64,000 nucleotides of DNA from Escherichia coli (lineage in GTDB: Bacteria > Pseudomonadota > Gammaproteobacteria > Enterobacterales > Enterobacteriaceae): NCBI RefSeq assembly GCF_046105845.1, contig NZ_CP151004.1; one strand, written 5' to 3'. Below the pieces are notes generated by a model, which saw nothing but the letters and a program-made list of their open reading frames with translations, was not told the DNA's origin and made no database searches. Shown in pieces: positions 8,313-63,605 of this stretch. The first letter of the stretch is position 1. Every line of letters starts with the position of its first letter. Position numbers and translations under genes: made by a program.

Positions 8313-8399
8313 AAAAAATAAGCCCGTGTAAGGGAGATTACACAGGCTAAGGAGGTGGTTCCTGGTACAGCTAGCATTTTATGGGTTATGTTTTTCAGC
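8313..8399 (-). ncRNA. cyaR: CyaR (RyeE) Hfq-dependent small RNA
   Basis: Minus-strand sequence GCTGAAAAACATAACCCATAAAATGCTAGCTGTACCAGGAACCACCTCCTTAGCCTGTGTAATCTCCCTTACACGGGCTTATTTTTT matches my recollection of CyaR, including the terminator hairpin (CCCTTACACGGGC) plus U-tract; located downstream of yegQ as in K-12. Confidence 0.85.
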
Positions 8400-8433
8400 G
8401 AAACGGATGATAACCTTAATAAATGCAGCTGTA

Positions 8434-21719: not shown

Positions 21720-21859
21720 CGGGAAAGCCCCTCCCGAGGAAGGGGCCATAAATAAGGAAAGGGTCATGATGAAGCTACTCATCATCGTGGTGCTCTTAGT
21801 CATTAGCTGGCCAGCTTACTAAGACTACCAGGGCGGGGGAAACCCCGCTCTACCCTCAC
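21720..21859 (-). ncRNA. Sib-family antisense sRNA (antitoxin) copy 1, approximate boundaries
   Basis: Minus-strand promoter: -35 TTGACA (rc of 21888-21893), 17-bp spacer, -10 TACTTT (rc of 21865-21870). Minus-strand terminator hairpin (rc of 21727-21746) plus U-rich tract. Fully overlaps the ibs ORF in antisense. Confidence 0.6.
21766..21822 (+). CDS. Ibs-family type I toxin peptide, copy 1 (MMKLLIIVVLLVISWPAY)
   Basis: 18-codon ORF with strong SD (aaggaaaggg) 6 nt upstream; hydrophobic single-TM peptide characteristic of Ibs toxins. The ibsA/ibsB/extra-copy assignment is uncertain. Confidence 0.8.
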   Translation: MMKLLIIVVLLVISWPAY

Positions 21860-22047
21860 TCCTGAAAGTATGCCTTCACGATAAGATTGTCAATCTGCAG
21901 GCTTTGCAGTCTGCGATCCTGCCAGCAAATATTCTTTGCGAGACGTTACGCAATAATCACACTGGAAACTATTTTATCCGCAAGTCAGCGATAGACTGCA
22001 TTCAGGGCGAAAGGAGGTAAGCCGACGATTTCAGCGGGACGCTGAAA

Positions 22048-22187
22048 CGGGAAAGCCCCTCCCGAGGAAGGGGCCTTAAATAAGGAAAGGGTCATGATGA
22101 AGATACTCATCATCGTGGTGCTCTTAGTGATTAGCTACCCAGCATACTAAGACTACCAGGGCGGGGGAAACCCCGCTCTACCCTCAC
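22048..22187 (-). ncRNA. Sib-family antisense sRNA (antitoxin) copy 2, approximate boundaries
   Basis: Same promoter (TTGACA-17-TAATTT) and terminator architecture as copy 1, shifted by one repeat unit. Confidence 0.55.
22094..22150 (+). CDS. Ibs-family type I toxin peptide, copy 2 (MMKILIIVVLLVISYPAY)
   Basis: Same architecture as copy 1 in the second repeat unit. Confidence 0.8.
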   Translation: MMKILIIVVLLVISYPAY

Positions 22188-22376
22188 TCCTGAAATTATG
22201 CCTTCACGATAAGATTGTCAATCCGCAGGCTTTGCAGTCTGCGATCCTGCCAGCAAATATTCTTTGCGAGTCGTTACGCAATAATCACAGAGGAAACTAT
22301 TTTATTCACGCGTTAGCGATAGACTGCATTCAGGGCGAAAGGAGGTAAGCCGACGATTTCAGCGGGACGCTGAAAC

Positions 22377-22520
22377 GGGAAACCCTCTCCCGGAGAAGAG
22401 GGCTTTTAATAAGGAAAGGGTTATGATGAAGCACGTCATCATACTGGTGATACTCTTAGTGATTAGCTTCCAGGCTTACTAAGAACACCAGGGGGAGGGG
22501 GAAACCTCTCCCTAACCCTC
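22377..22520 (-). ncRNA. Sib-family antisense sRNA (antitoxin) copy 3, approximate boundaries
   Basis: Minus-strand TTGACA (rc of 22551-22556), 17-bp spacer, TAATTT; terminator-like hairpin near 22385-22405. Confidence 0.55.
22423..22482 (+). CDS. Ibs-family type I toxin peptide, copy 3 (MMKHVIILVILLVISFQAY)
   Basis: 19-codon ORF in the third repeat unit with SD aaggaaaggg. Confidence 0.8.
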   Translation: MMKHVIILVILLVISFQAY

Positions 22521-22702
22521 ACTCCTGAAATTATGTCACTCCGCCCTTAGTGTCAATCGACGGCTCTCCGTTCTTGCGAGGCGAATAGCAAAATTTTCTG
22601 CGCCGCCGGGCCTAATTCTGAAAGTTTCTTCGTTTGCTCTTATTTCATTATTGCAATCGGTATGATACCGGACCTCGATAATTCTCTAAGAAAGGATTTC
22701 TT

Positions 22703-36303: not shown

Positions 36304-37887
36304 TCACACCTCGTACTCTATCTCGCTATCCTTACGCAGCGGTATAATCTGCACCTTCTGCACGCGATGGCTTTCCACCTGCAACGTTTTAAGCAAATAA
36401 TCCCCCACCTGAACTTCTTCGCCAGGTTTTGGAATACGCTGCAAATATTCCATCAGCAGCCCGGCAATGGTGTGATATTCGCGTTTCTCATCCAGCGGTA
36501 GCGGCACATATTGCACCAGATCTTCCAGTGGCATATGACCATTCGCCGTCCAGGAACCGTCGGCGTTTTTCTGAATATCATGGCGGGCGTCGATCTCTTC
36601 CACTTCGTTCGGCAAGTTACCGGCAATAGTTTCCGTGACGTCACTTAATGTCACAATCCCTTCCACCGAGCCAAACTCATCCACTACAAAAGCAAAGTGC
36701 GTGCGGGCATTACGGAACTGCTCCAGGGCAGGTAACAACGGCAAGGTTTCCGGGAACACCAGCGGCTGGCGAATCAACACCCGCAGGTTGAGCGGTTCGC
36801 CGCGCAGTGACTGTTGTAACAGGTCGATAACGTGAACAACACCGAGCAAATCTTCTGCGTCATCACCGTCGGTAACCACCAGCCGCGTATGCTGATTTCG
36901 CTCCAGCAACTGGCGGATTTCTTCTTCCGGCGCGTTGAGATCGATATGCTCAATATCGTGGCGCGACGTCATAATGCTGCTGACGGTACGCTGATTAAGA
37001 TTAAGTACCCGCTCAATCATCCGCCGTTCCTGCGGATTAAAGATCTGCTGGTTACCATGATCCACCAGCATGGACGCGGTTTCGGCGTCCAGTTCCGCAT
37101 CTTCTTTTTGCCCGCTAAGCAGGCGCATTACCGCTTCGGTAGTCCGCTGGCGCAGTGTCTGGTTAGCGGAAAGAAAACGTCGACGGTTAAAGATAGCCAA
37201 CTGATTGAGCGCCTCGATCATCACCGAGAAACCAATGGCAGCGTACAGGTAGCCTTTCGGAATGACGAAGCCGAAACCTTCTGCCACCAGGCTAAAGCCA
37301 ATCATCAACAGGAAGCTTAAGCAGAGAATAACGATGGTCGGGTGACTGTTAACAAATTGCGTTAACGGCTTGCTGGCCATCAACATCAGGCTGATAGCGA
37401 TAACCACGGCGGCCATCATGACCAGTAAATGGTCGACCATCCCGACGGCGGTAATCACTGAGTCGAGTGAGAAGATGGCGTCCAGTACCACAATTTGTGT
37501 CACCACCCCCCAGAACTTCGCACCTTTGCGTTGCGTGGGGTTATTGCTGTCTTTCCCTTCCAGCCGTTCGTTCAGCTCCATCGTGGCTTTGAACAGCAGG
37601 AAGAAACCACCAAACAGCATGATTAAGTCGCGGGCGCTAAAGGTAAACGAGCGAAAGCTGAATAGCGGTTGTGTCAGGGTGACCAGCCAGGAGATTGACG
37701 CCAGCAGTAACAGGCGCATTAACATCGCCAGCAGCAGCCCGGTAACCCGTGCGCGGTCGCGCTGCTTCGGCGGTAGTTTTTCGGCGAGGATGGCAATAAA
37801 GACCAGGTTATCAATGCCGAGGACCAGTTCGATCACAATCAGCGTGATTAACCCGGCCCAGATAGACGGATCGGCAATCCATTCCAT
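36304..37887 (-). CDS. yegH: TerC-family integral membrane protein with C-terminal CBS and CorC/HlyC transporter-associated domains
   Basis: ORF track extends to 37953; likely start is the ATG at 37887 ([16 protein letters not shown]...), giving 527 aa. Confidence 0.85.
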
Positions 37888-38048: not shown

Positions 38049-38062
38049 TAAGAAATATCGCA
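38049..38062 (+). promoter_or_regulatory. Candidate RcsAB box (TAAGAAATATCGCA) upstream of the colanic-acid operon
   Basis: Seen in sequence; partial match to the RcsAB consensus TaAGaatatTCctA, about 490 bp upstream of the wza ATG. Assignment is tentative. Confidence 0.35.
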
Positions 38063-38327
38063 TGTGGAGACACTATATTAAATATTGTCAACCTAAAGAA
38101 ACTCCTAAAAACCATATTGAATGACACTTAATATAATTCTTAAAAATAGCCAATTGCCGAATTGTTACCTTGCCTGCTATTCCGTTAGCTGTAACACTTC
38201 CTCCTGCATTATTGGAGAGCCAATATTCAATTACCATAATGTCACCTTATATTCGGAAGTTAATTTCCGCAATAACCCTTTCTCATCAACGACTGCATGC
38301 TGAGAGGGTGTAAAAACTAAACTAAAT

Positions 38328-38366
38328 CAGTGTATTGGTAGCTAAAAAGCCAGGGGCGGTAGCGTG
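38328..38366 (+). promoter_or_regulatory. JUMPStart element with ops site (GGCGGTAGCGTG at 38355-38366) in the wza 5' leader; RfaH recruitment site
   Basis: Seen in sequence: cagtgtattggtagctaaaaagccaggggcggtagcgtg. The ops core matches GGCGGTAGnnTG exactly, and the 3' end of the element is shared with the rfb JUMPStart at 62406-62444. Confidence 0.8.
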
Positions 38367-38544
38367 TCTGGATGCCTGAAAGACCAGTCTGAATTATTCT
38401 GTCAATAGCCTGCGGATGAAATCAATTTTTTTAGGACTGATGCCAGTTAAATTTTTATTCAATTAACTGCAAGGTAAATGTGCATGGCGACATTGCTATT
38501 AATAGTGCACAGGATAATTACTCTGCCAAAGTGATAAATAAACA

Positions 38545-39684
38545 ATGATGAAATCCAAAATGAAATTGATGCCATTATTGGTGTCAGTAACCTTGATAAG
38601 CGGTTGCACAGTACTTCCGGGCAGCAATATGTCGACGATGGGTAAAGACGTCATCAAACAGCAGGACGCTGATTTCGATCTCGACAAAATGGTGAATGTT
38701 TATCCGTTGACCCCGCGCCTGATTGATCAATTACGACCACGCCCGAATGTAGCGCGCCCCAATATGACGCTGGAAAGTGAGATCGCGAATTATCAGTATC
38801 GCGTCGGGCCGGGGGACGTTCTTAATGTCACCGTCTGGGATCACCCGGAACTCACCACGCCAGCCGGTCAGTACCGCAGCTCCAGCGACGCCGGCAACTG
38901 GGTACAGCCTGACGGCACTATGTTTTACCCGTATATCGGCAAGGTTCACGTCGTGGGGAAAACGCTCGCTGAAATCCGCAGTGATATTACCGGGCGCTTA
39001 GCGACGTACATCGCTGACCCGCAGGTGGACGTTAATATCGCCGCCTTCCGCTCGCAAAAAGCCTATATCTCCGGTCAGGTGAATAAATCCGGTCAACAGG
39101 CCATCACCAACGTGCCACTGACCATTCTTGATGCCATCAACGCCGCAGGTGGCCTGACCGACACCGCTGACTGGCGCAACGTAGTGCTAACACACAATGG
39201 TCGTGAAGAGCGCATTTCTTTGCAGGCGCTGATGCAAAACGGCGACCTCAATCAGAACCGACTGCTTTACCCCGGCGATATTCTCTACGTGCCGCGTAAT
39301 GATGATCTGAAAGTGTTTGTGATGGGTGAAGTGAAGAAACAGAGCACCCTGAAAATGGACTTTAGCGGCATGACCCTGACTGAAGCCCTTGGTAATGCTG
39401 AAGGCATCGACATGACCACCTCCAACGCCAGCGGCATCTTTGTCATTCGTCCGCTGAAAGGCGAGGGTGGGCGTAACGGCAAGATTGCCAATATCTACCA
39501 GCTGGATATGTCCGATGCCACGTCGCTGGTGATGGCGACAGAATTCCGCCTGCAACCTTATGACGTGGTGTATGTCACCACCGCCCCGGTTTCCCGCTGG
39601 AATCGTCTGATCAATCAGTTGCTGCCAACTATTAGCGGTGTCCGTTACATGACGGATACAGCCAGCGACATTCATAACTGGTAA
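38545..39684 (+). CDS. wza: Outer-membrane polysaccharide export lipoprotein (OPX family)
   Basis: 379-aa ORF with lipoprotein signal (LISGC). Confidence 0.93.
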
Positions 39685-52705: not shown

Positions 52706-52806
52706 CAGTTGCATAATCAACCGGATTAATTCTTCGGTAAATAACGACAAAAACAAAATTGGCCGCTTCGGTCAGGGCCAACTATTGCCTGAAAAAGGGT
52801 AACGAT

Positions 52807-55626: not shown

Positions 55627-57105
55627 ATGAGCTTACGTGAAAAAACCATCAGCGGCGCGAAGTGGTCGGCGATTGCCACGGTGATCATCATCGGCCTCGG
55701 GTTGGTGCAGATGACCGTGCTGGCGCGGATTATCGACAACCACCAGTTCGGCCTGCTTACCGTGTCTCTGGTGATTATCGCGCTGGCAGATACGCTTTCT
55801 GACTTCGGTATCGCTAACTCCATTATTCAGCGAAAAGAAATCAGCCACCTTGAACTCACCACGTTGTACTGGCTGAACGTCGGGCTGGGGATCGTGGTGT
55901 GCGTGGCGGTGTTTTTGTTGAGTGATCTCATCGGCGACATGCTGAATAACCCGGACCTGGCACCGTTGATTAAAACATTGTCGCTGGCGTTTGTGGTGAT
56001 CCCCCACGGGCAGCAGTTCCGCGCGTTGATGCAGAAGGAGCTGGAGTTCAACAAAATCGGCATGATCGAAACCAGCGCGGTGCTGGCGGGCTTCACTTTT
56101 ACGGTGGTTAGCGCCCATTTCTGGCCGCTGGCGATGACCGCGATCCTCGGTTATCTGGTCAATAGTGCGGTAAGAACGCTGCTGTTTGGCTACTTTGGCC
56201 GCAAAATTTATCGCCCTGGTCTGCAGTTCTCGCTGGCGTCGGTGGCACCGAACTTACGCTTTGGTGCCTGGCTGACGGCGGACAGCATCATCAACTATCT
56301 CAACACCAACCTTTCAACACTCGTGCTGGCGCGTATTCTCGGCGCGGGCGTGGCAGGGGGATACAACCTGGCGTACAACGTGGCCGTTGTGCCACCGATG
56401 AAGCTGAACCCAATCATCACCCGCGTGTTGTTTCCGGCGTTTGCCAAAATTCAGGACGACACCGAAAAGTTGCGCGTCAACTTCTACAAGCTGCTGTCGG
56501 TGGTGGGGATTATCAACTTTCCGGCGCTGCTGGGGCTGATGGTGGTGTCGAATAACTTTGTACCGCTGGTCTTTGGTGAGAAGTGGAACAGCATTATTCC
56601 GGTGCTGCAATTGCTGTGTGTGGTGGGGCTGCTGCGCTCAGTGGGTAACCCGATTGGTTCGCTGCTGATGGCGAAAGCGCGGGTCGATATCAGCTTTAAA
56701 TTCAACGTATTCAAAACCTTTCTGTTTATTCCGGCGATTGTTATTGGTGGGCAGATGGCGGGCGCAATCGGCGTCACGCTTGGCTTCCTGCTAGTGCAGA
56801 TTATCAACACCATTCTGAGCTATTTCGTGATGATTAAACCGGTGCTCGGTTCCAGTTATCGCCAGTACATCCTGAGTTTACGGCTGCCGTTTTATCTCTC
56901 GCTGCCGACGCTGGTGGTCAGTTATGCGCTGGGCATTGTGCTGAAAGGGCAACTGGCGCTGGGGATGCTGCTGGCGGTGCAAATAGCCGCGGGCGTGCTG
57001 GCGTTTGTAGTGATGATTGTGCTGTCGCGCCATCCGCTGGTGGTGGAAGTGAAGCGTCAGTTTTGTCGCAGCGAAAAAATGAAAATGCTTTTACGGGCGG
57101 GGTGA
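55627..57105 (+). CDS. wzxC: Colanic acid repeat-unit flippase (Wzx/MOP family)
   Basis: 492-aa polytopic membrane ORF. Confidence 0.92.
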   Translation: MSLREKTISGAKWSAIATVIIIGLGLVQMTVLARIIDNHQFGLLTVSLVIIALADTLSDFGIANSIIQRKEISHLELTTLYWLNVGLGIVVCVAVFLLSDLIGDMLNNPDLAPLIKTLSLAFVVIPHGQQFRALMQKELEFNKIGMIETSAVLAGFTFTVVSAHFWPLAMTAILGYLVNSAVRTLLFGYFGRKIYRPGLQFSLASVAPNLRFGAWLTADSIINYLNTNLSTLVLARILGAGVAGGYNLAYNVAVVPPMKLNPIITRVLFPAFAKIQDDTEKLRVNFYKLLSVVGIINFPALLGLMVVSNNFVPLVFGEKWNSIIPVLQLLCVVGLLRSVGNPIGSLLMAKARVDISFKFNVFKTFLFIPAIVIGGQMAGAIGVTLGFLLVQIINTILSYFVMIKPVLGSSYRQYILSLRLPFYLSLPTLVVSYALGIVLKGQLALGMLLAVQIAAGVLAFVVMIVLSRHPLVVEVKRQFCRSEKMKMLLRAG

Positions 57106-57176
57106 ATGGTTGTTTTAGGCTACGGCAATAAAAACAACAACATAACCTCACCTGGCATCAAATTTATGAGGAAAAA

Positions 57177-58457
57177 ATGAAATTACTTATTCTGGGTAAC
57201 CACACTTGCGGCAACCGCGGCGACAGCGCCATCCTGCGCGGCTTACTTGATGCCATCAACATCCTCAATCCACACGCCGAAGTGGACGTAATGAGCCGCT
57301 ATCCGGTCAGTTCTTCCTGGCTGCTCAACCGCCCGGTGATGGGCGATCCGCTGTTCCTGCAAATGAAACAACACAACAGCGCGGCGGGCGTTGTCGGGCG
57401 CGTTAAAAAAGTCCTCCGTCGCCGCTATCAGCACCAGGTATTGCTCTCACGCGTCACCGACACTGGCAAGCTGCGTAATATCGCGATCGCCCAGGGATTC
57501 ACTGACTTCGTGCGCCTGCTGTCAGGTTACGACGCCATTATTCAGGTCGGCGGATCGTTTTTTGTCGATCTCTACGGCGTGCCGCAGTTTGAGCACGCGC
57601 TTTGCACATTTATGGCGAAAAAGCCGCTGTTTATGATTGGTCACAGCGTCGGCCCCTTCCAGGATGAGCAATTTAACCAACTGGCGAACTACGTTTTTGG
57701 TCACTGTGACGCGCTGATCCTGCGCGAGTCGGTTAGCCTCGATCTAATGAAACGCAGCAATATCACCACTGCAAAAGTGGAACATGGCGTCGATACCGCG
57801 TGGCTGGTCGATCACCACACCGAAGATTTCACCGCCAGCTATGCCGTTCAACACTGGCTGGACGTTGCCGCACAACAGAAAACGGTGGCAATTACCCTGC
57901 GCGAACTGGCACCGTTCGACAAACGCCTCGGCACCACTCAACAAGCGTATGAAAAAGCCTTTGCCGGGGTGGTCAATCGCATTCTCGATGAAGGGTATCA
58001 GGTGATTGCGCTTTCCACCTGTACGGGCATCGACAGCTATAACAAAGACGACCGCATGGTGGCGCTCAACCTGCGCCAGCACATCAGCGATCCTGCCCGT
58101 TACCACGTGGTGATGGATGAACTCAACGATCTGGAAATGGGCAAAATTCTTGGTGCCTGTGAACTCACCGTCGGTACGCGCCTGCACTCCGCCATTATCT
58201 CAATGAACTTTGCCACTCCGGCGATTGCCATCAACTATGAACATAAATCCGCCGGGATTATGCAGCAGCTGGGGCTGCCAGAGATGGCGATTGATATCCG
58301 TCATTTACTGGACGGCAGCTTACAAGCGATGGTTGCGGATACCTTAGGCCAACTTCCGGCGCTGAACGCACGACTTAGCGAAGCCGTCAGTCGCGAACGT
58401 CAGACGGGAATGCGGATGGTGCAATCTGTGCTTGAACGCATTGGGGAGGCGAAATGA
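57177..58457 (+). CDS. wcaK: Colanic acid biosynthesis pyruvyl transferase
   Basis: 426-aa ORF. Confidence 0.9.
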   Translation: MKLLILGNHTCGNRGDSAILRGLLDAINILNPHAEVDVMSRYPVSSSWLLNRPVMGDPLFLQMKQHNSAAGVVGRVKKVLRRRYQHQVLLSRVTDTGKLRNIAIAQGFTDFVRLLSGYDAIIQVGGSFFVDLYGVPQFEHALCTFMAKKPLFMIGHSVGPFQDEQFNQLANYVFGHCDALILRESVSLDLMKRSNITTAKVEHGVDTAWLVDHHTEDFTASYAVQHWLDVAAQQKTVAITLRELAPFDKRLGTTQQAYEKAFAGVVNRILDEGYQVIALSTCTGIDSYNKDDRMVALNLRQHISDPARYHVVMDELNDLEMGKILGACELTVGTRLHSAIISMNFATPAIAINYEHKSAGIMQQLGLPEMAIDIRHLLDGSLQAMVADTLGQLPALNARLSEAVSRERQTGMRMVQSVLERIGEAK

Positions 58458-61253: not shown

Positions 61254-62147
61254 ATGACGAATTTAAAAGCAGTTATTCCTGTAGCGGGTCTTGGGATGCA
61301 TATGTTGCCTGCCACTAAGGCGATTCCCAAAGAGATGCTACCGATCGTCGACAAGCCAATGATTCAGTACATTGTTGACGAGATCGTGGCTGCAGGGATC
61401 AAAGAAATCCTCCTGGTAACTCACGCGTCCAAGAACGCAGTCGAAAACCACTTCGACACCTCTTATGAATTAGAATCTCTCCTTGAACAGCGCGTGAAGC
61501 GTCAGCTGCTGGCGGAAGTACAGTCCATTTGCCCGCCGGGCGTGACCATTATGAACGTGCGTCAGGGCGAACCTTTAGGTTTGGGCCACTCCATTTTATG
61601 TGCACGACCTGCTATTGGTGACAACCCATTTGTCGTGGTGCTGCCAGACGTTGTGATTGACGACGCCAGCGCCGACCCGCTGCGCTACAACCTTGCTGCC
61701 ATGATTGCGCGCTTCAACGAAACGGGCCGCAGCCAGGTGCTGGCAAAACGTATGCCGGGTGACCTCTCTGAATACTCTGTCATCCAGACCAAAGAGCCGC
61801 TGGACCGCGAAGGTAAAGTCAGCCGCATTGTTGAATTCATCGAAAAACCGGATCAGCCGCAGACGCTGGACTCAGACATCATGGCCGTTGGTCGCTATGT
61901 GCTTTCTGCCGATATTTGGCCGGAACTTGAACGCACTCAGCCAGGTGCATGGGGACGTATTCAGCTGACTGATGCCATTGCCGAACTGGCGAAAAAACAG
62001 TCTGTTGACGCCATGCTGATGACTGGTGACAGCTACGACTGCGGTAAAAAAATGGGCTATATGCAGGCATTTGTGAAGTATGGACTACGCAACCTCAAAG
62101 AAGGGGCGAAGTTCCGTAAAGGGATTGAGAAGCTGTTAAGCGAATAA
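61254..62147 (+). CDS. galF: UTP-glucose-1-phosphate uridylyltransferase regulatory subunit
   Basis: ORF track starts at 61242; start set at the ATG at 61254 ([30 protein letters not shown]), 297 aa. Confidence 0.93.
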
Positions 62148-62405: not shown

Positions 62406-62444
62406 CAGTGCTCTGGTAGCTGTAAAGCCAGGGGCGGTAGCGTG
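62406..62444 (+). promoter_or_regulatory. JUMPStart element with ops site (GGCGGTAGCGTG at 62433-62444) in the rfb operon leader
   Basis: Seen in sequence: cagtgctctggtagctgtaaagccaggggcggtagcgtg; matches the JUMPStart consensus as I recall it, and the ops core is exact. Confidence 0.85.
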
Positions 62445-62519: not shown

Positions 62520-63605
62520 GTGAAAATACTTGTTACTGGTGGCGCAGGATTTATTGGTTCTGCTGTAGTTCGTCACATTATAAATAATACGCAGGATAGT
62601 GTTGTTAATGTCGATAAATTAACGTACGCCGGAAACCTGGAATCACTTGCTGATGTTTCTGATTCTGAACGCTATGTTTTTGAACATGCGGATATTTGCG
62701 ATGCAGCTGCAATGGCGCGGATTTTTGCTCAGCATCAGCCGGATTCAGTGATGCACCTGGCTGCTGAAAGCCATGTTGACCGTTCAATTACAGGTCCTGC
62801 GGCATTTATTGAAACCAATATTGTTGGTACTTATGTCCTTTTGGAAGCGGCTCGCAATTACTGGTCTGCTCTTGATGGCGACAAGAAAAATAGCTTCCGT
62901 TTTCATCATATTTCTACTGACGAAGTCTATGGTGATTTGCCTCATCCTGACGAAGTAAATAATAAAGAACAATTACCCCTCTTTACTGAGACGACAGCTT
63001 ACGCGCCTAGTAGTCCTTATTCCGCATCAAAAGCATCCAGCGATCATTTAGTCCGCGCGTGGAAACGTACCTATGGTTTACCGACCATTGTGACTAATTG
63101 CTCTAACAATTATGGTCCTTATCATTTCCCGGAAAAATTGATTCCACTAGTAATTCTTAATGCTCTGGAAGGTAAGGCATTACCTATTTATGGCAAAGGG
63201 GATCAAATTCGTGACTGGCTGTATGTTGAAGATCATGCGCGTGCGTTATATACCGTCGTAACCGAAGGTAAAGCGGGTGAAACTTATAACATTGGTGGGC
63301 ACAACGAAAAGAAAAACATTGATGTAGTGCTCACTATTTGTGATTTGCTGGATGAGATTGTACCGAAAGATAAATCTTACCGCGAGCAAATTACTTATGT
63401 TGCCGATCGTCCGGGACACGATCGCCGTTATGCGATTGATGCTGAGAAGATTGGTCGCGAATTGGGATGGAAACCACAGGAAACGTTTGAGAGCGGGATT
63501 CGGAAGACAGTGGAATGGTACCTGTCCAATACAAAATGGGTTGATAATGTGAAAAGTGGTGCCTATCAATCGTGGATTGAACAGAACTATGAGGGCCGCC
63601 AGTAA
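62520..63605 (+). CDS. rmlB: dTDP-glucose 4,6-dehydratase
   Basis: 361-aa ORF with GTG start; SDR motif TGGAGFIGS; first gene after the JUMPStart element. Confidence 0.93.

Follow-up and report, generated by a model that had tools for sequence, protein, structure and literature searches.

Two JUMPStart/ops elements in the leaders of the colanic-acid and O-antigen operons of Escherichia coli

The DNA analysed here, a stretch of 64,000 nucleotides (the window), is the his-linked polysaccharide region of E. coli and holds two long clusters of polysaccharide genes. It raises two questions: whether both clusters are preceded by the JUMPStart/ops element through which RfaH acts, and what is meant by the divergence of one of the two copies in its 5' half. 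Genes were called from the list of open reading frames and from the annotation of a collinear E. coli record, NZ_CM149870.1 (Table 1). The colanic-acid operon, from wza to wcaM, gathers 20 genes in 22.5 kb downstream of the first ops. The O-antigen (rfb) cluster starts at rmlB and extends beyond the end of the window.

Table 1. Coordinates of the features discussed in the text, in the numbering of the window.
Feature	Position	Strand	Basis and remarks
yegH	36304-37887	-	Collinearity with NZ_CM149870.1 and ORF list
Candidate sigma-70-like promoter, TGGAGA-16-CATAAT	38213-38240	+	Consensus scan; lead only
JUMPStart of the wza-wcaM (colanic-acid) leader	38328-38366	+	CAGTGTATTGGTAGCTAAAAAGCCAGGGGCGGTAGCGTG; Rfam RF01707, 57.3 bits, E 1.6e-10
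Stem-loop of the wza JUMPStart	38335-38353	+	TTGGT 38335-38339, 9-nt loop, GCCAG 38349-38353; Rfam consensus structure
ops of the wza copy, GGCGGTAGCGTG	38355-38366	+ (non-template strand)	Exact match; expected pause U11 at 38365
Leader from ops to wza ATG	38367-38544	+	Blocks conserved between genera at about 38430-38450 and 38510-38541
wza	38545-39684	+	Collinearity with NZ_CM149870.1 and ORF list
Colanic-acid operon wza-wzb-wzc-wcaABCDEF-gmd-fcl-gmm-wcaI-cpsB-cpsG-wcaJ-wzxC-wcaKLM	38545-61079	+	ORF list and NZ_CM149870.1
galF, between the colanic-acid and rfb clusters	61254-62147	+	Collinearity with NZ_CM149870.1 and ORF list
JUMPStart of the O-antigen (rfb) leader	62406-62444	+	CAGTGCTCTGGTAGCTGTAAAGCCAGGGGCGGTAGCGTG; Rfam RF01707, 60.0 bits, E 2.6e-11
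Stem-loop of the rfb JUMPStart	62413-62431	+	CTGGT 62413-62417, 9-nt loop, GCCAG 62427-62431; Rfam structure
ops of the rfb copy, GGCGGTAGCGTG	62433-62444	+	Exact match; expected pause U11 at 62443
rmlB (rfbB), first rfb gene	62520-63605	+	Collinearity with NZ_CM149870.1 and ORF list; start codon GTG

A search of the whole window for the ops returned two exact copies of GGCGGTAGCGTG, precisely where the first-pass annotation had placed them. The number expected by chance is about 0.008 (2 x 64000 / 4^12), and a search that tolerated one mismatch added no third site in the window. Read on the non-template strand, both copies agree with the 12-nt consensus GGCGGTAGnnTG, the T11-G12 pause dinucleotide included, and thus have all the bases known to matter (C3, G4, G5, T6, A7, G8, T11, and G12). 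In both elements the ops core, GGCGGTAG, lies at the 3' end. The earlier claim that each ops sits within a 39-bp JUMPStart is borne out by the Rfam model of the element (RF01707, gathering score 35 bits): both 39-mers align to it over their full length (model positions 1-38 of 38) with scores well above this value (Table 1), and there is no third match to the model within the window. The divergence that had been noticed in the 5' half of the wza copy is also real. The two 39-mers are identical at 34 of 39 positions, with the five differences all within the first 22 nt, and their last 22 nt are the same. Both elements lie between genes and share the strand of those that follow, 178 nt before wza and 75 nt before rmlB, with 24.1 kb from one ops to the other. 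By sequence, Rfam score, orientation, and position in the leader, both are JUMPStart/ops elements, and we hold with high confidence that they are the canonical elements of the 5' leaders of wza-wcaM and rfb in this surface-polysaccharide region.

The 8-mer GGCGGTAG occurs nine times in the window, against 1.5 times in shuffles. The seven extra words sit within long open reading frames, away from both leaders, and match the ops at no more than 10 of 12 positions and the JUMPStart at 12-18 of 39. Since the word ranks only 763rd among the 46406 8-mers of the window, its excess is ordinary k-mer bias of coding sequences, and we rejected the enrichment as a meaningful signal.

Elements of this kind are nearly universal in E. 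coli. All but one of the 5426 complete genomes (5425) carry a JUMPStart-like 39-mer or a near variant of it, in a median of 3 places and a maximum of 6. The exact rfb 39-mer was found in 2122 records, and megablast identified the wza leader in about 4825 of the 5426 complete genomes, with 95-99.6% identity. Since the clusters for colanic acid and O-antigen lie side by side, a 64-kb window with two copies is the norm in this species. Seven diverse E. coli share an identical wza 39-mer: the window, K-12, O157:H7, and four others. The alignment of these seven genomes has 18 variable columns just upstream of the element (38053-38321), and only 2 of the 20 variable columns fall between the first base of the element and the wza start codon, a span of 217 nt (38328-38544; Fisher p = 0.002). 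Both sites are already described in the literature, and the finding is ordinary for E. coli.

A scan of 100,044 species genomes for the 18 invariant nucleotides at the 3' end of the element, a query that leaves the 5' half free (positions 1-21 unconstrained), gave at least 120 loci. A JUMPStart-like 5' arm is present in 104 loci among the 120 matches listed. The first gene downstream, among these matches, is wza in 28-29 loci, rmlB or another NDP-sugar dehydratase in 17-18, wbaP/amsG in 7, and waaQ in 5; wecA, manC, and others account for further loci, and 7 listed loci have a Wzm-like ABC permease downstream, from a family match that is well below the curated cut-off. These genes are the known, published RfaH repertoire. 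A separate class, upstream of tssH/vgrG of type VI secretion systems (T6SS), has the ops without the JUMPStart 5' half (7-10 listed loci). Among the matches listed, the 5' half is 0.80 identical to that of the window in 29 wza leaders, compared with 0.44 for the upstream flank, and 0.89 identical in 15 rmlB leaders, compared with 0.48 and 0.41 for the flanks. Only two extra ops sites were found in the fetched loci, neither with a JUMPStart-like upstream context. Two scans of viral contigs for JUMPStarts with an altered 3' arm gave 42 matches, all 42 without the JUMPStart 5' half; many of them resemble Gly/Ser-rich coding sequence. The Campylobacter phage matches are in UNVERIFIED, unannotated records, and on the plasmid that we inspected the match is a captured piece of rfb accompanied by IS elements.

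The Rfam consensus structure places a stem-loop of five pairs in the 5' half (Table 1), and all five pairs are standard in both copies of the window. In the emerged RNA (first 27 nt) the hairpin is the minimum free energy fold, with -2.7 kcal/mol for wza and -5.6 kcal/mol for rfb; the wza stem, closed by a U·G pair, is the weaker of the two. A second sample, of at least 120 loci (61 distinct elements), came from scanning metagenomes for JUMPStarts with a 3' closing base other than G, and among the matches listed a 3' closing base A is met by a 5' closing base T in 50 of 54 cases. In the combined alignment of 136 distinct elements, 98.4% of the stem cells are paired, and the closing pair is U-A in 48, C-G in 46, U·G in 30, and A-U in 2. 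The observed covariation score is reached by none of 500 shuffles, slid controls are 16-55% paired, and the association at the closing pair has a Fisher p of 1.4e-11, all of these being statistics uncorrected for shared ancestry. The 3' letters were fixed by the two search patterns, so it is the response of the 5' side that is informative. This covariation confirms the predicted short RNA stem directly upstream of the ops, and the frequent G·U pairs indicate a stem of RNA and not of DNA. Over the whole 39-mer, as RNA or as DNA, there is no thermodynamic signal for the stem above shuffles (z ~0). When nascent RNA was folded with 40 nt of upstream context, the stem formed with p > 0.5 in 12 of 30 wza and 11 of 16 rfb leaders; in the window, the rfb stem is among those with p > 0.5, and the wza stem is not clearly formed, with competing folds.

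The identity of the 5' arm follows the class of the operon. Among the matches listed, it is TTGGT in 28 of the 29 wza leaders, which come from many genera, and CTGGT in all 15 rmlB leaders. With the other genes included, the TTGG arm corresponds to an exopolysaccharide (EPS) class (wza 27/29, wbaP/amsG 6/7) and the CTGG arm to a lipopolysaccharide (LPS) class (rfb 17/18, waaQ 4/5, manC 3/3), again among the matches listed. In the series of closing pairs (C-G, U·G, U-A), TTGG...GCCAG is thus the wobble intermediate between CTGG...GCCAG and TTGG...GCCAA.

The divergence of the wza copy could be taken as decay, that is, as a weakened JUMPStart whose 5' half no longer matters and in which the ops alone is functional. 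The five substitutions relative to the rfb copy, the weaker stem, and the competing folds with upstream context would suit this, as would the T6SS tssH sites, which are reported RfaH ChIP targets without any 5' half (PMC9765446). A decaying sequence is nevertheless hard to reconcile with a wza-type 5' half that is kept across genera well above its upstream flank, with a 39-mer that is invariant in seven E. coli genomes beside a polymorphic stretch, and with a closing-position T that still pairs, as U·G, the evolutionary intermediate to the common U-A form. We consider decay very unlikely, and the wza copy is better described, from these comparisons, as a member of the 'TTGG' subtype, which is conserved and typical of operons for Wza-type exopolysaccharides. 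That the two matches reflect chance or non-functional similarity is vanishingly improbable: apart from the over-representation of short G+C-rich words like GGCGGTAG in coding DNA, nothing speaks in its favour, and it is refuted by the Rfam E-values (1e-10 to 1e-11), by the identity of the two sites, their leader position and correct orientation, and by a distribution that is near-universal in E. coli and spans Enterobacterales.

A different function for the 5' half has more to recommend it. Instead of folding as an RNA stem-loop, it might act at the level of DNA, its GGTAG being a second, partial ops that RfaH contacts too. The ops core is directly repeated there as GGTAGC, the commonest hexamer at this place (67 of the 104 JUMPStart-like loci among the matches listed), and Weinberg et al., citing Marolda and Valvano 1998, note that RfaH enhancement in the O7 rfb leader fell when either ops was deleted. 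Yet the bases equivalent to A7 and G8 of the ops vary freely in the partial copy (GGTTGC in 10, GGCAGC in 9, GGTAAC in 6, and GGTGAC in 4 of the matches listed), when A7T and G8C abolish RfaH recruitment at the true ops (PMC5995543). The partial copy also lacks C3 and G4, conservation falls on the stem-arm bases, the closing position shows covariation with its 3' partner, and the frequent G·U pairs of the stem suit RNA. These data argue against the partial ops as a second RfaH site, which we regard as unlikely.

A role for the RNA stem is suggested by its geometry. A single conserved stem-loop was reported by Weinberg et al. (2010), who also noted the overlapping partial ops (GGUAG) and described the hly leader of pHly152 as having no stem. 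In both copies of the window, the last base of the stem (38353 / 62431) is 12 nt 5' of U11 of the ops (38365 / 62443), and pause hairpins of the his type form 11-12 nt from the 3' end. It is possible, if on the doubtful side, that the 5' half encodes a nascent-RNA structure (the 5-bp stem, perhaps with an interleaved helix that would make an H-type pseudoknot) that tunes the ops pause and the loading or escape of RfaH. With its edge 12 nt behind U11, such a structure could stabilise the swivelled state or block backtracking; escape from the ops pause requires anti-backtracking factors (PMC11001881). If this reading were true, the two copies of the window would differ in strength, because in the wza copy the stem is weaker and the second helix contains a C/A mismatch. 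An upstream RNA stem is not discussed in the structural study of the ops pause (PMC11001881), and a literature search on JUMPstart, stem-loop, and pause returned nothing relevant.

The second helix would pair positions 1-4 of the 39-mer (CAGY) with positions 14-17 (RCUG), interleaved with the stem; the signal is suggestive and the helix unproven. Pair 1-17 is paired in 88 of 137 sequences, against 61 in shuffles (0/5000 reach the observed value) and 19-41 in slid controls, in statistics where shared ancestry is uncontrolled. In the genome-only subset, in which positions 1-21 were unconstrained, the observed value for pair 1-17 is reached by 5 of 5000 shuffles, and likewise for pair 2-16. The loop sequence AGCUG is found with CAGY in 49 of 62 cases, AGCUU with AAGY in 13 of 15, and AGCGA with xCGC in 4 of 5. 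Loops with AGCUA, including the wza copy of the window, mostly keep a C/A mismatch. The helix is only 3-4 bp long, and a duplex-energy test of it for non-AGCUG loops was not significant (p = 0.19).

Between the ops and the start codon, the wza leader has no Shine-Dalgarno match near the ATG. Of the 20 genes whose anti-Shine-Dalgarno duplex was scored, wza through rmlB, none has a weaker duplex than wza (-1.6 kcal/mol). The one at rmlB is weak too (-3.3 kcal/mol). Such weak sites would fit with RfaH-assisted translation initiation and ribosome recruitment. In the wza leader RNAalifold found no covarying structure, and its sole long-range proposal pairs invariant columns. Further upstream, a consensus scan gave one sigma-70-like promoter (Table 1), with 3.1 such sites expected; this is no better than chance and we discarded it as functional evidence. 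A search upstream of wza found no match to the RcsAB box at three or fewer mismatches near the leader. Two stretches, TAAGAAATATCGCA at 38050-38063 and 38129-38142 read as its reverse complement, look like the RcsAB consensus on visual inspection and are candidates only. From the literature, we infer that promoters lie upstream of each JUMPStart, so that each element would be transcribed.

How the elements would work is given by earlier studies of the ops. RNA polymerase would transcribe through the JUMPStart, and the 12-nt ops in the exposed non-template DNA would fold into a small hairpin (C3:G8 pair, T6 flipped out) as the polymerase pauses at U11. This DNA hairpin would recruit RfaH, which once bound would be retained, would exclude NusG and Rho-dependent termination, and would aid the recruitment of ribosomes, allowing the promoter-distal genes of the long operon to be expressed. 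The hairpin, the U11 pause, and the binding of RfaH have been described (PMC5995543, PMC11001881), and the substitutions G4C, G5A, A7T, and G8C abolish RfaH recruitment at the ops (PMC5995543; PMC11001881). Intragenic ops sites do not recruit RfaH (PMC9765446). Both ops sites of the window are in leaders, outside translated genes, which matches this leader-only rule.

The first-pass annotation had predicted that both operons depend on RfaH, and published experiments at the same or equivalent loci support this. In E. coli CFT073, eight leader ops sites have an RfaH ChIP signal, including those of wzx (O-antigen) and wza, and the signal is gone in an rfaH deletion (PMC9765446). At wza-wcaM the signal was seen only in a Δhns ΔstpA strain, wca being silent in standard conditions (PMC9765446), because H-NS and StpA silence initiation there. 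The wca operon is described as using the JUMPStart-RfaH mechanism (PMC9976346), and the making of colanic acid is listed as a process under RfaH regulation (PMC3101779). In Erwinia amylovora the ams (EPS) and rfb operons are adjacent and each carry GGCGGTAGcgTG in the leader, and RNA-seq showed that 5' polarity rises sharply across both in a ΔrfaH mutant (PMC9562583). By analogy with these loci, RfaH probably acts at both copies of the window in this strain. The prediction needs one refinement: for wca, dependence on RfaH is conditional, since the silencing in CFT073 implies that how much RfaH matters physiologically at wza will depend on induction by Rcs.

The two regulatory sites help to explain the expression of distal genes in colanic-acid and O-antigen operons of more than 20 kb, and this has value for annotation without being a discovery. 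Beyond annotation, only the role of the JUMPStart 5' half could matter, with its RNA stem, its arm subtype by operon class, and its geometry resembling that of a pause hairpin. If an RNA structure of this kind, perhaps with the second helix, modulates the ops pause or the loading of RfaH, it would add an RNA component to a system now explained entirely by a DNA hairpin.

The closest known counterparts of the two elements are those of E. coli itself. The cps/wca leader of K-12 (NZ_CP178206.1) has the same 39-mer at the same position upstream of wza; the 511 bp around it are 98.8% identical to the window and the element itself shows no difference. A JUMPStart in this leader was described by Hobbs and Reeves (1994) and Stout (1996), as cited in PMC9976346. 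The rfb JUMPStart/ops of the E. coli and Salmonella O-antigen, described by Marolda and Valvano (1998) and Wang et al. (1998), as cited in PMC2864571, has the same CAGTGCTCTGGTAGCTGTAAAGCCAGGGGCGGTAGCGTG form in the same galF-rmlB intergenic site, about 75 nt from rmlB, and we detected no difference. Another counterpart of the rfb copy is the wzx locus of CFT073, to which RfaH binds (PMC9765446).

More distant systems share one part of the element or another. The leaders of T6SS tssH/vgrG and of hly (pHly152) have the same ops 12-mer on the non-template strand, and tssH is an RfaH ChIP target (PMC9765446). Unlike the copies of the window, they lack the JUMPStart 5' half and its stem, which indicates that the ops can work without the stem. 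The spacing from the JUMPStart stem to U11 is like that of the hairpin-stabilised pauses of the his type, a resemblance from which we claim no membership: the ops pause is biochemically distinct from that type and is stabilised by a DNA hairpin (PMC11001881), and the JUMPStart stem is weak. The pair of ams (amylovoran) and rfb operons in Erwinia amylovora has the same side-by-side layout of EPS and LPS clusters, with GGCGGTAGcgTG in each leader and 18.4 kb between the ops sites, compared with 24.1 kb in the window. It differs in being from another genus and in having amsG/wbaP instead of wza as the first gene. Among the matches listed, 6 of the 7 leaders that start with wbaP/amsG, which include several Erwinia species, have the TTGG arm, like wza.

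The subtype of the 5' arm of the JUMPStart stem follows the class of the operon. Counts were drawn from loci L009-L128 (numbered handles of the fetched loci), and hold among the matches listed. The TTGG arm characterises EPS operons, being present in 27 of the 29 that start with wza and in 6 of the 7 that start with wbaP or amsG. The CTGG arm is found in 17/18 rfb, 4/5 waaQ, and 3/3 manC loci. The arms compared in the two copies of the window, which precede wza and rmlB, are located in the table together with the other features.

Positions 1-4 (CAGY) and 14-17 (RCUG) of JUMPStart could form a second helix. This candidate helix would be interleaved with the Rfam stem (RF01707), giving the element a pseudoknot topology. 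Column statistics, which ignore the kinship of the sequences, speak for it, with the pair 1-17 paired in 88 of 137 sequences versus 61 in shuffles; by the same statistics, again ignoring kinship, the loop AGCUU accompanies AAGY and AGCGA accompanies xCGC. The wza copy of the window has a C/A mismatch in the candidate helix.

Location in the window of the elements analysed (strand and Rfam score where available)
Feature	Positions	Strand	Score (bits)
Stem 5' arm, wza copy	38335-38339		
Stem 5' arm, rfb copy	62413-62417		
Candidate second helix, wza copy	38328-38331 with 38341-38344		
Candidate second helix, rfb copy	62406-62409 with 62419-62422		
wza leader block TTTTTAGGAnTGATGCCAGTTA	38430-38450		
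wza leader block CAGGATAATTACTCTGCCAAAGTGATAAATAA	38510-38541		
WP_162829205.1 (49 aa)	~38088-38237	-	
wzxC-wcaK gap	57105-57177		
Sib antitoxin RNAs, three in tandem (RF00113)	21751-21893, 22079-22221, 22408-22556	-	140-150
CyaR/RyeE sRNA (RF00112)	8316-8401	-	100.7
algC RNA motif (RF02929)	52753-52802	+	77.3

Downstream of ops, the wza leader contains two blocks that are nearly invariant between genera, the second of which ends 4 nt upstream of the wza ATG. Searches of both blocks yielded neither an Rfam family nor a structure with covariation, and wza has no Shine-Dalgarno match. On the opposite strand, the ORF of the hypothetical protein WP_162829205.1 overlaps the presumed wza promoter region. 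It is annotated in many RefSeq E. coli genomes, is absent from the K-12 annotation, and is probably a spurious gene call. Within the colanic acid operon, the algC RNA motif occupies the cpsB-cpsG intergenic gap, directly 5' of the phosphomannomutase gene. The wzxC-wcaK gap spans 72 nt in the window; in NZ_CM149870.1, which is collinear elsewhere, it spans 285 nt, hence an indel of ~210 nt between strains.

The conjugative NDM plasmid p12100-NDM of Providencia rettgeri (L129, 40703-46741) has a JUMPStart that matches at 38/39 positions; it is followed by ISAs1 and recombinase genes, then by rfbB, and looks like a captured fragment of an O-antigen leader. Two 'Campylobacter phage' records (MG065686.1, phage A18a, L130; and MG065691.1) match at 33/39. 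Both are unannotated and bear the flag UNVERIFIED; a genuine phage element seems less likely here than contamination or misassembly. The 39-mers on contigs labelled as non-enterobacterial, from Arthrobacter sp. GMC3 (L061, a 4.2-kb contig with coverage 2) and an Erysipelotrichia MAG (L067), are identical or near-identical to the E. coli rfb copy and probably reflect contamination or mis-binning of public assemblies.

The identical ops 12-mer also occurs ~20 nt upstream of the T6SS gene tssH in several Enterobacterales (among the matches listed, L017, L031, L034, L036, L075, L076, L082, and L083) and at vgrG (L077 and L112, among the same matches). These T6SS sites lack the JUMPStart stem, and those at tssH have a conserved 5' context, CCTTATGGGCATCGGTTAACGG, unlike that of JUMPStart. 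The tssH loci agree with the report of tssH as an RfaH target in E. coli CFT073 (PMC9765446).
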